A stretch of 64,000 nucleotides of DNA, taken from the NCBI GenBank assembly GCA_045613315.1, contig JAZLAV010000018.1, positions 33,975 to 97,974 on the forward strand, read 5' to 3'. The notes beneath the pieces were generated by a model. It saw only the letters and a program-made list of their open reading frames with translations, was not told where the DNA came from and ran no database searches. The stretch is from Candidatus Enterousia sp. (GTDB lineage: Bacteria; Pseudomonadota; Alphaproteobacteria; Rs-D84). Positions within the stretch are counted from its first letter, which is position 1, and each line of letters opens with the position of its first letter. Shown piece by piece: positions 62,410-64,000 of this stretch. A program made the translations under genes and the position numbers.

Positions 62410-64000
62410 ATGGCTGAAGAATTTATAGAATTAAATCGCTCTTATCGTAGTATAGAATATAGAATAGAATCACCGAAGATGTTGTCAGAATTATTACTAG
62501 ACGATTCTTGTAATATAATTGTTATAATTGGAGATAAGGGGAGTGGTAAGACAACAGAGTTAAAACAATTTTATTGTAAAAATAAAAATAATACAGTGTG
62601 GGGGCATTTAAACGATGTTGTGAATGCAAAAGATAGATTTCAAGACCAAATATTCAGATTGTTTTCTGGTGATGTAGCAAGTTATAACATTTTGTTAGAT
62701 TCTATAGATGAATGTCGTATGTTAGACAATGCCCAAGATGCATTTAAAGTTGCTCTTGATAATTTGTGTGAAGTATTGGGAAAATTTCCAGAAAAATTGA
62801 AGTATACAAAAATATTATTTACTTGCCGAGGAAGTGATTGGCGTGGCAATTTGGGGTGGTATACAGAAAAGCAATACGAAGGTGATTTAGATGCAAAACT
62901 TATAAATGAAAGTTTTAATAATTTATTTGTACCAGAAAACGAAGCAAATTCTGTTGATGACAAACAAAACTTTGTTCCAAAAATAAAAATATTTCATTTA
63001 GAAGATTTGTCGGAAGAACAGAAAAAGATTATAGCAAAAAATTATGGTTTGAATGGAAAGAGCTTAACAAATAATTTATTTAATCAATTTACTAATACAC
63101 CGCTTGAATGCATACAGTTAGTAGTATTCCTTAAACAACACTCGATAACCAATTATGATATGGATGAATTTTTCCTGTATCAGTTAAGATACAGATATAG
63201 AGAGTTGAACAATCATAGAACTTCAAATATGCCAATAAAATTAATAGAAAAAATGGCTAAGAGGTTAGCTGTATCCACTTTGTTTAAACAGACTCTTTCG
63301 ATCAGTAAAAAAGAGAGTTATGGATCTTTCGCAACACAAGACAGTGTTTCTGTTTTAGAATTATTTCCTGAAGAAGATCATCAAACAATAAAAGACTTTA
63401 TAAGTTCTACAATATTTTCTTCAAATGGGTTAAATAGAGTTAAATTTTGGAATGAAACGGCTAGAGATTACCTGGCTTATTTATGGTTAAAAGAAAGAAT
63501 TGCTAACGGAAAATATAGAGATGTTGTACAACACCTTTTCATAAACGGTCATCCTAAAGAACAATTTATTCCAGCACTGATTGCTTTGAGCAATAGTGAA
63601 CCAAAAATTCATAAACTTTTAATAAAAAATCATCCAGAAGCATTTATAATCAATTCTCACCTTTGTCCAAATTTGCCGTCTCGGGATAAAGAAAATATTA
63701 TAAACGATATTTTACAAAAATATGAACACCGTATACGTTGGATGTCTGGATGGGGGCAAAGGTTATTCGTGGCAAACTTTGCTAATAACATCGGGGTAGA
63801 TTTTTTGCTACACAAATTGAATCATATTGATAAATCTTCGGAAGATAAACGTTTATTTGTGCTTGAACTTATGAATGGGATACAACCCCAAAATTTAATT
63901 GCTACAGAAGAAAAAAAATTAAAAAAATTTTTGTATAAAATCATTGATACGGATACAAGTTATTTACAGTCTTATGCCTTAGAAATACTAACAAAATTTA
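62410..64000 (+). CDS. P-loop NTPase (AAA+/STAND-like), 5' part of at least 530 aa, continues past window end
   Basis: Hand translation from the ATG at 62410 is open through position 64000, checked line by line. Walker A is IIVIIGDKGSGKTTEL and a Walker-B-like NILLDSIDE lies about 55 aa later. Very AT-rich. The gene is missing from the ORF track because it has no stop inside the window. Confidence 0.7.
   Translation, partial: MAEEFIELNRSYRSIEYRIESPKMLSELLLDDSCNIIVIIGDKGSGKTTELKQFYCKNKNNTVWGHLNDVVNAKDRFQDQIFRLFSGDVASYNILLDSIDECRMLDNAQDAFKVALDNLCEVLGKFPEKLKYTKILFTCRGSDWRGNLGWYTEKQYEGDLDAKLINESFNNLFVPENEANSVDDKQNFVPKIKIFHLEDLSEEQKKIIAKNYGLNGKSLTNNLFNQFTNTPLECIQLVVFLKQHSITNYDMDEFFLYQLRYRYRELNNHRTSNMPIKLIEKMAKRLAVSTLFKQTLSISKKESYGSFATQDSVSVLELFPEEDHQTIKDFISSTIFSSNGLNRVKFWNETARDYLAYLWLKERIANGKYRDVVQHLFINGHPKEQFIPALIALSNSEPKIHKLLIKNHPEAFIINSHLCPNLPSRDKENIINDILQKYEHRIRWMSGWGQRLFVANFANNIGVDFLLHKLNHIDKSSEDKRLFVLELMNGIQPQNLIATEEKKLKKFLYKIIDTDTSYLQSYALEILTKF

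Follow-up and report, generated by a model that had tools for sequence, protein, structure and literature searches.

Ligand-induced oligomerisation is the established mechanism of the bacterial Avs and bNACHT antiphage proteins. Two of the names used for such NACHT defence proteins, Hypnos and Erebus, were reportedly given by van den Berg et al. in 2024. Avs10 has since been defined as the family comprising Erebus, Hypnos and bNACHT64 by Lee et al. (Nature 2026; PMC13581612), who showed that HK97-fold major capsid proteins act as its trigger by binding to the helical sensor, and that 13 screened Avs families, Avs10 among them, need the effector domain in order to be toxic. Hypnos was also listed among the DNA-targeting defence systems (PMC13307970), and the effectors of some bacterial NACHT proteins were located by Kibby et al. 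at the extreme C-terminus (bioRxiv 10.1101/2022.07.19.500537). Here, we describe an open reading frame (ORF) that runs off the end of a 64,000-nt stretch of Candidatus Enterousia sp. DNA (assembly GCA_045613315.1, contig JAZLAV010000018.1, positions 33,975 to 97,974; hereafter, the window). We consider it likely that this ORF is the 5' part of a gene for a single-gene, NLR-like antiphage receptor that is distantly related to HyoA (NCBIfam NF058534, "NACHT domain-containing antiphage protein HyoA"), is carried as cargo by a mobile element and acts by the mechanism proposed below.

The ORF comprises the first 530 codons of a 1,379-amino acid (aa) NACHT/STAND NTPase gene (62410-64000, forward strand) and is cut by the window end; its assignment rests on the open frame, a longer copy in another genome and the HyoA profile. 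Its translation begins with MAEEFIELNRSY and contains IIVIIGDKGSGKTTEL and YNILLDSIDECRM. The same letters, those of the start as well as those of the Walker A and Walker B-like motifs, had been read in the initial annotation and were found again on retranslation. That annotation had also described a frame with no stop from the ATG at 62410 through 64000, and the translation bears it out: given the base composition of the segment, in which a random stop is expected every ~11 codons, 530 codons in a row would escape a stop with a probability of 2.6e-22. The remaining five frames of the segment contain 22-57 stops each, with a longest open run of 103 codons, and the antisense ORF at 62682-62963, dismissed earlier as noise, is merely the longest chance opening on the opposite strand. 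The start at 62410 is the first start codon past the upstream in-frame stop, as seen in the ORF listing of the same gene in the genome L001, and a Shine-Dalgarno-like GGAAG motif lies just 5' of it (62401-62405). Two earlier figures required correction, since the G+C content is 29.7% instead of about 25%, and the Walker A lysine and the Walker B aspartate (K47 to D97) are 50 aa apart, not about 55. The ORF is indeed absent from the ORF track, as had been pointed out, but this is no biological oddity, because the program that lists the ORFs omits those running off the end of the source. The reading frame is thus confirmed as real.

The continuation of the gene can be followed in related genomes. 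A scan of species-representative genomes returned two loci, namely L001, an uncultured alphaproteobacterial metagenome-assembled genome from sheep (CAJOGC010000002.1), in which the first 530 residues are identical to those of the window, and L002, whose homologue is 62% identical. The L001 frame extends over 1,379 aa (L001:10001-14140, 4,140 nt). A Logan assembly, L003, matches window positions 58778-64000 at 95.5% identity, and its 1,379-aa product is the same bar a few residues. Within the shared 1,591 nt the copies differ by 1-4 nt, with a single difference (99.9% identity) between L001 and the window. L001 and L003 are close relatives, and neither is the window's own contig; exact look-ups of the DUF2924 and recombinase proteins encoded next to the ORF gave no match in the searched index. 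A word-indexed homologue search with the 530-aa fragment yielded no match either, probably because it was overwhelmed by AT-rich words of low complexity. When 1.84 billion representatives were searched exhaustively with HMMER, 137 relatives emerged, almost all of them ~1,400 aa long, and a further search provided full-length homologues at 74%, 60%, 56% and 46% identity, followed by proteins of 18-20% identity that pass the HyoA cutoff. The clade is small and AT-rich (roughly six clusters at 50% identity with E < 1e-17 among the representatives), and its hosts are uncultured gut-type Alphaproteobacteria. These copies bear directly on one alternative, namely that within an AT-rich island the ORF is open by chance or belongs to a pseudogene in decay. 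The stop codon lies beyond the window end, so that intactness rests on the copies, and the neighbour downstream of the STAND gene in L001 looks truncated in comparison to its L003 counterpart. Nevertheless, the chance of such a frame is the vanishing one given above, the gene is intact and full-length in L001, L003 and more than ten homologues of constant length (~1,380 aa), and the ratio of non-synonymous to synonymous substitution rates (dN/dS) is well below 1. We regard this alternative as effectively refuted and give it almost no weight.

The N-terminal part of the protein carries a NACHT module of nucleotide-binding, helical and winged-helix domains (residues ~36-458; 62515-63783, forward strand), delineated by NF058534, an AlphaFold2 model and Foldseek. 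The Walker A motif, or P-loop, is G41-D-K-G-S-G-K47-T48 (GDKGSGKT; 62530-62553, forward), and Walker B, with a NACHT-type acidic extension, is I94-L-L-D97-S-I-D100-E101 (ILLDSIDE; 62689-62712, forward). A sensor-1-like F-T-C-R140 (62818-62829, forward) ends a beta strand formed by residues 133-139 in the AlphaFold2 model. In an alignment of 37 full-length homologues, G46-K47-T48, D97, D100, E101, R140, P231 and P409 were invariant and S98 was almost invariant. NACHT NTPases are said to be defined, in the work of Koonin & Aravind from 2000 and Leipe et al. from 2004, by the signature D-[GAS]-h-D-E, and the D-S-I-D-E of the Walker B motif, judged by its residues, fits that signature. The protein consequently presents both elements expected of the NACHT clade, a Walker A of the form GxxxxGK[ST] and a Walker B of the form hhhhD joined to D-[GAS]-h-D-E. 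The match of the fragment to NF058534 covered residues 36-458 against model positions 41-474 (E 7e-31, 106.7 bits).

The AlphaFold2 model of the 530-aa fragment (pLDDT 87, pTM 0.83) was compared with the Protein Data Bank (PDB) by Foldseek, and the best matches were rabbit NOD2 (8.8e-8), Avs4 (1.1e-7), NLRP3 (2e-7) and NLRC4 (2.6e-7), all with a probability of 1.00. NLRP7 and NLRP2 were also among the best matches, which ranged in E value from 9e-8 to 2e-6, and the NLR structures outranked FtsH and other AAA+ proteins. The predicted succession of nucleotide-binding, helical and winged-helix domains therefore resembles that of solved NLR structures. The preference for an AAA+/STAND over an ABC assignment in the initial annotation is upheld by these structural matches (~1e-7), by the NACHT-type DSIDE and by the collinear alignment to HyoA presented below. 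Readings of the ORF as an ABC ATPase or as a generic AAA+ protein were rejected, as the Pfam ABC_tran and AAA matches were insignificant and the NLR structures ranked above FtsH and other AAA+ proteins. Pfam matches to P-loop families were sub-threshold, the best of them (nSTAND_NTPase5 and AAA_14) remaining below their cutoffs, and a sequence search of the PDB with the protein gave no match.

The full-length protein aligned to the HyoA profile in one stretch, residues 36-1378 against positions 41-1427 of 1430 (E 6.3e-115). The homology is thus collinear from end to end, with the same domain order and with motifs shared at both ends. Bona fide HyoA members (P0148, P0149, P0158 and P0013, scoring 1264-1737 bits) were retrieved as full-length homologues. 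Because the full-length searches reach proteins that pass the HyoA cutoff, we place the protein by sequence on a diverged branch within the HyoA family, alike in architecture, and not among the equivalog members; it is of a known kind and does not represent a new system. The protein is not a common housekeeping ATPase, a match to which the initial annotation had named as a refuting outcome.

Sensor and nuclease domains had been suggested as features to be sought further downstream, and the near-identical copies contain both a long helical region and a PD-(D/E)xK-like C-terminal domain. In the AlphaFold2 model of the fragment, residues ~349 to 530 form helices only. What is presumed to be the sensor, a long alpha-helical region, starts within the window (63784-64000, forward strand) and continues past its end to about residue 1230 according to the AlphaFold2 models; a faint HEAT_2 match was found in the homologue P0141. 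W869, G898, N928 and P931 are nearly invariant in this central region in the homologue alignment. A second model, of residues 1040-1379 (pLDDT 87), is helical to ~1265 and then forms an alpha-beta-beta-beta-alpha-beta unit, the core of which is predicted with a pLDDT of ~90 (elements H202-224, E244-248, E251-259, H265-280 and E288-295 in model numbering). The last ~140 aa hold an E...D...ExK...Q..Y motif that is invariant across the homologues; in the 37-homologue alignment, the invariant residues are E1248, E1272, D1282, E1295, K1297, Q1314 and Y1319. E1248 lies in the first helix of the second model, D1282 (KKPD) at the start of a strand, E1295-x-K1297 (IECK) in the strand that follows, and Q1314 and Y1319 in the helix thereafter. 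The protein thus carries the pattern E...(P)D...(D/E)xK (E1248, D1282, E1295-C-K1297) on a predicted alpha-beta-beta-beta-alpha-beta core, and its placement there corresponds in the model to the canonical PD-(D/E)xK layout. The C-terminal domain is probably a PD-(D/E)xK nuclease, as judged from the model; we treat it as probable only, because the fold and sequence searches gave weak support. The Foldseek matches of the C-terminal model were weak and included many proteins of the restriction-endonuclease fold, among them Nt.BspD6I, McrBC, Hjc resolvases, AF1548, Mrr-like proteins, RecU, VRR-NUC and proteins labelled "restriction endonuclease". The last ~290 residues (about 1090-1377, a helical stalk and the nuclease-like domain) also match many plasmid "hypothetical proteins" at 23-28% identity, including those of Burkholderia, Phaeobacter, Rhizobium and Klebsiella; in most of these records, no N-terminal match was reported. 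In comparison with the 74%-identical homologue of the locus L004, dN/dS was 0.13 for the NTPase, 0.23 for the central region and 0.075 for the C-terminal domain, these ratios being approximate as dS was near saturation. Such a pattern is expected if the protein is functional, its engine and effector being conserved and its sensor evolving faster.

A number of results weigh against the interpretation of the ORF as a HyoA-like receptor with a nuclease effector. The window holds the first 38% of the gene, and the 3' continuation is presumed from the L001 and L003 copies. With Pfam NACHT (PF05729, cutoff 26.7 bits), neither the protein (14.3 bits, E 0.037) nor its L002 counterpart (13 bits, E 0.09) reached significance. 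The full-length protein of L001 scored 385.3 bits against HyoA, far below the equivalog cutoff of 1200 bits, and its identity to true HyoA proteins is 18-20%; on account of both values, a function and trigger in common with HyoA would be an extrapolation. A PADLOC search with the full-length proteins at E <= 0.1 returned no match, including none to an AVAST/Avs model; the 530-aa fragment produced a weak HEC-02A P-loop match alone. We infer that HyoA is Hypnos and EruA is Erebus because of the names, because the two proteins, each a NACHT antiphage protein, are alike in size and because both NCBIfam profiles match the same proteins; our literature searches found no relevant paper using the gene names HyoA or EruA. 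As regards the C-terminal domain, no Foldseek match of its model was obtained at E <= 1e-3. Ten C-terminal fragments searched against Pfam at E <= 10 matched no nuclease family, apart from one PDDEXK_4 match at E 0.066, and a C-terminal profile had no relevant match among PDB sequences. A comparison by hhalign with an Hjc sequence gave no match and, with a single-sequence template, was uninformative.

The lack of a significant nuclease match in the fold and profile searches would also be explained if the protein were an NLR-like sensor with a non-nuclease C-terminal domain, that is, a degenerate or ligand-binding restriction endonuclease-like fold, the output being delivered by another mechanism or by a partner. 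In L005-L008, a DUF5677 gene lies immediately downstream in the same orientation and could be regarded as such a partner. However, the downstream gene is not conserved, being different in L001, in L003, in L002 and L009, and in L005. Moreover, the full E/D/ExK constellation is invariant across proteins that are just 17-20% identical overall, and it is the C-terminal domain that is under the strongest purifying selection (0.075). We hold this alternative to be improbable and retain the nuclease-bearing, HyoA-like receptor as the preferred reading.

The behaviour of the STAND gene is that of mobile defence cargo, and the element that carries it is an integrative, phage-like one with a serine recombinase and a terminase. 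The left border of this low-GC element is a tRNA-Ser(UGA) gene (58663-58752, forward strand; ARAGORN), which likewise adjoins the element in L001 and L006. The GC content falls from 44% to 34% after the tRNA gene, and that of the STAND gene is ~30%. At the edge of the element lies an HNH_3 endonuclease gene (58912-59229, reverse; PF13392, E 1e-12), followed by a gene for a 226-aa protein with Cys-rich C-terminal motifs (59195-59875, reverse), which has no family match and is conserved in L003. A large serine recombinase of 539 aa (60081-61700, reverse; NCBIfam CcrB/XisF-like, E 3e-35) is the integrase of the element; its L003 copy bears the Resolvase and Recombinase Pfam domains. Next to it is the gene for its conserved partner, a DUF2924 protein (61690-62130, reverse; PF11149, E 1e-19), and this gene pair is also present in L003-L007. 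The STAND gene is the last of the low-GC block in the window and diverges from the remaining genes of the block across an AT-rich intergenic region (62131-62409), in which promoter-like sites (e.g., TTTACA-18-CATAAT, 62274-62303) were no commoner than in shuffled sequences. Downstream of the STAND gene in L003 are genes for a 390-aa protein of unknown family, a large terminase, DUF5681 and a ParB-N6/N4 methylase. The same recombinase-DUF2924 backbone in L005-L008 carries a 46%-identical homologue, accompanied by the terminase module known from L003 and by genes for DUF5677, DUF488, Peptidase_U49 (Lit family) and HNH proteins. The element of L004, with the 74%-identical homologue, also holds ThsB_TIR, T5orf172 and HipA genes. 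The homologues of L002 and L009 adjoin a small resolvase, outside the serine-recombinase/DUF2924 element.

The element is 92-99.9% identical among genomes with chromosomal backbones that are ~78-80% identical, and the near-identity of the STAND gene despite a backbone identity of ~79% suggests that the gene was transferred or recombined recently. A comparison of the window with L001 (window 61744-64000 versus L001 9335-11591) showed a sharp step in identity, from 93.3% in the DUF2924 gene (61744-62130), with 92% further left, to 99.6-99.9% from 62131 on; L003, in turn, is 99.2% identical to the window in the DUF2924 segment. These alignments suggest that recombination with a breakpoint near 62130 recently exchanged the STAND cassette between variants of the element. 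The gene 3' of the STAND gene encodes 390 aa in L003 (7835-9007) and 249 aa in L001 (14203-14952), and the homology between the two loci ends at L001:14898, beyond which GNAT acetyltransferases and a 696-aa repeat protein take the place of the terminase module in L001. There, the element thus appears to have been truncated or rearranged.

Elements of this family stand beside tRNA-Ser(UGA) in the window (58753-64000), L003 (1-13439), L005 (1-17600) and L006 (2528-15836), and their genes encode a large serine recombinase, DUF2924, a ParB-N6/N4 methylase, DUF5681, a large terminase and HNH endonucleases. Their cargo slot is variable, holding the STAND gene alone, with ThsB_TIR/T5orf172/HipA genes or with DUF5677/DUF488/Peptidase_U49 genes. 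The precomputed Pfam matches of ~17 kb of L005 included no recognisable capsid, portal or tail gene, and the family could represent a phage satellite or a decayed prophage. A bolder, rather doubtful view is that the clade constitutes a separate antiviral STAND family, more than a diverged HyoA, with a trigger of its own that differs from the sensing of capsid proteins described for Avs10. The protein would then be the weapon of an undescribed kind of serine-recombinase element that lacks a capsid, encodes a terminase and HNH endonucleases and inserts beside tRNA-Ser(UGA) in uncultured gut Alphaproteobacteria. If so, this element might be a phage satellite, and it would turn the sensor on competing phages while sparing its helper.

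For the HyoA-like receptor, a single-protein abortive-infection sensor is the most likely function by analogy with the described systems. At rest, the N-terminal NACHT ATPase would keep the protein as an inactive, nucleotide-bound monomer. Upon infection, the long alpha-helical region would capture a phage protein, possibly the capsid, given the HK97-fold major capsid protein recognised by the Avs10 relatives. Ligand and ATP would then cause the NACHT modules to oligomerise, and the oligomer would gather and switch on the C-terminal PD-(D/E)xK-like nuclease domains, which would cut DNA and abort the infection. The cargo gene would in this way protect the host of the element against competing phages. 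Nuclease activity, oligomerisation, trigger and abortive infection are all proposed on the Avs/bNACHT precedent, while what the analysis shows is the intact gene, the NACHT-type fold and motifs, the full-length HyoA homology, the purifying selection and the mobile, defence-rich context. A STAND NTPase might instead serve the element or its host outside defence, as a signal-transducing regulator of the MalT/AfsR type or as a replication, packaging or maintenance factor of the element. Non-immune STAND clades are interspersed with defence clades (PMC13581612), and in L003 and L005-L008 the STAND gene adjoins the terminase and ParB-methylase genes, leaving room for a role in the element. Against such a role, Pfam searches revealed no helix-turn-helix or other DNA-binding output domain in the protein, the conserved C-terminal motif is nuclease-like, and the named homologues are antiphage proteins only. 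The position of the gene relative to the element core also varies, and in L002 and L009 it lies outside the element, by a small resolvase, as cargo would. We find a non-defence role hard to credit and prefer the antiphage sensor.

Other observations were made elsewhere in the window. Three glycosyltransferase genes (GT1, GT2 and GT2; 36374-39211, reverse strand), located in the lowest-GC stretch of the backbone (32% at 36-38 kb), probably form a variable surface-polysaccharide cluster. A 162-aa ORF (35889-36377, forward) has a significant Mtd_N match (E 1.5e-16); Mtd_N, the N-terminal domain of the major tropism determinant, is known from phage receptor-binding proteins targeted by diversity-generating retroelements. 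A small membrane protein with a zinc ribbon and a TM2 domain is encoded between lgt and the tRNA-Ser gene (58292-58603, forward), in a segment without a counterpart at the equivalent position of L001.

The locus extends the HyoA/Hypnos-type family into a lineage missed by Pfam, PADLOC and the NCBIfam cutoff, and it offers a clear natural example of an NLR-like sensor moving as cargo, with a gene identity of 99.9% against ~79% for the backbone. For annotation, it shows that ORFs cut by a window edge drop out silently and that divergent STAND defence genes require profile or structure methods. The result is useful to annotation and ordinary for the field, raising no new mechanistic question.

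Among the known systems, the animal NLRs NOD2, NLRC4 and NLRP3 provided the best structural matches of the nucleotide-binding, helical and winged-helix module, and the Walker B motif reads D-S-I-D-E. Unlike them, the protein is without LRR, CARD or PYD domains, bears its predicted enzymatic output domain in the same polypeptide, and is bacterial and borne by a mobile element. It resembles Avs1-5 and bNACHT proteins (Kibby et al. 2023) in combining a STAND NTPase, a helical-repeat sensor and a nuclease-type effector, and Avs4 (structure 8dgf) was the second-best structural match of the N-terminal model. It differs from most of them in that the effector is C-terminal instead of N-terminal as usual, a known minority arrangement, and from AVAST in having a NACHT-type NTPase and no PADLOC AVAST match. 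EruA (NF058535) is likewise a NACHT antiphage protein and is homologous to HyoA, but it is much more distant from the present protein: its matches were weak for the window fragment (E 1e-7) and the L002 homologue (E 3e-15), and the full-length L001 protein had none at E <= 0.01. The closest likeness is to HyoA. The two are separated by the low identity (18-20%; 385 bits against a cutoff of 1200) and by the confinement of the present branch to a small AT-rich clade in uncultured gut-type Alphaproteobacteria. They share the length class (~1,380-1,460 aa) and are collinear throughout, with an N-terminal NACHT module, a long helical middle and an identical invariant C-terminal E/D/ExK/Q..Y motif; W869, G898, N928 and P931 are kept even in the central region, and both are encoded by a single gene without a conserved partner.

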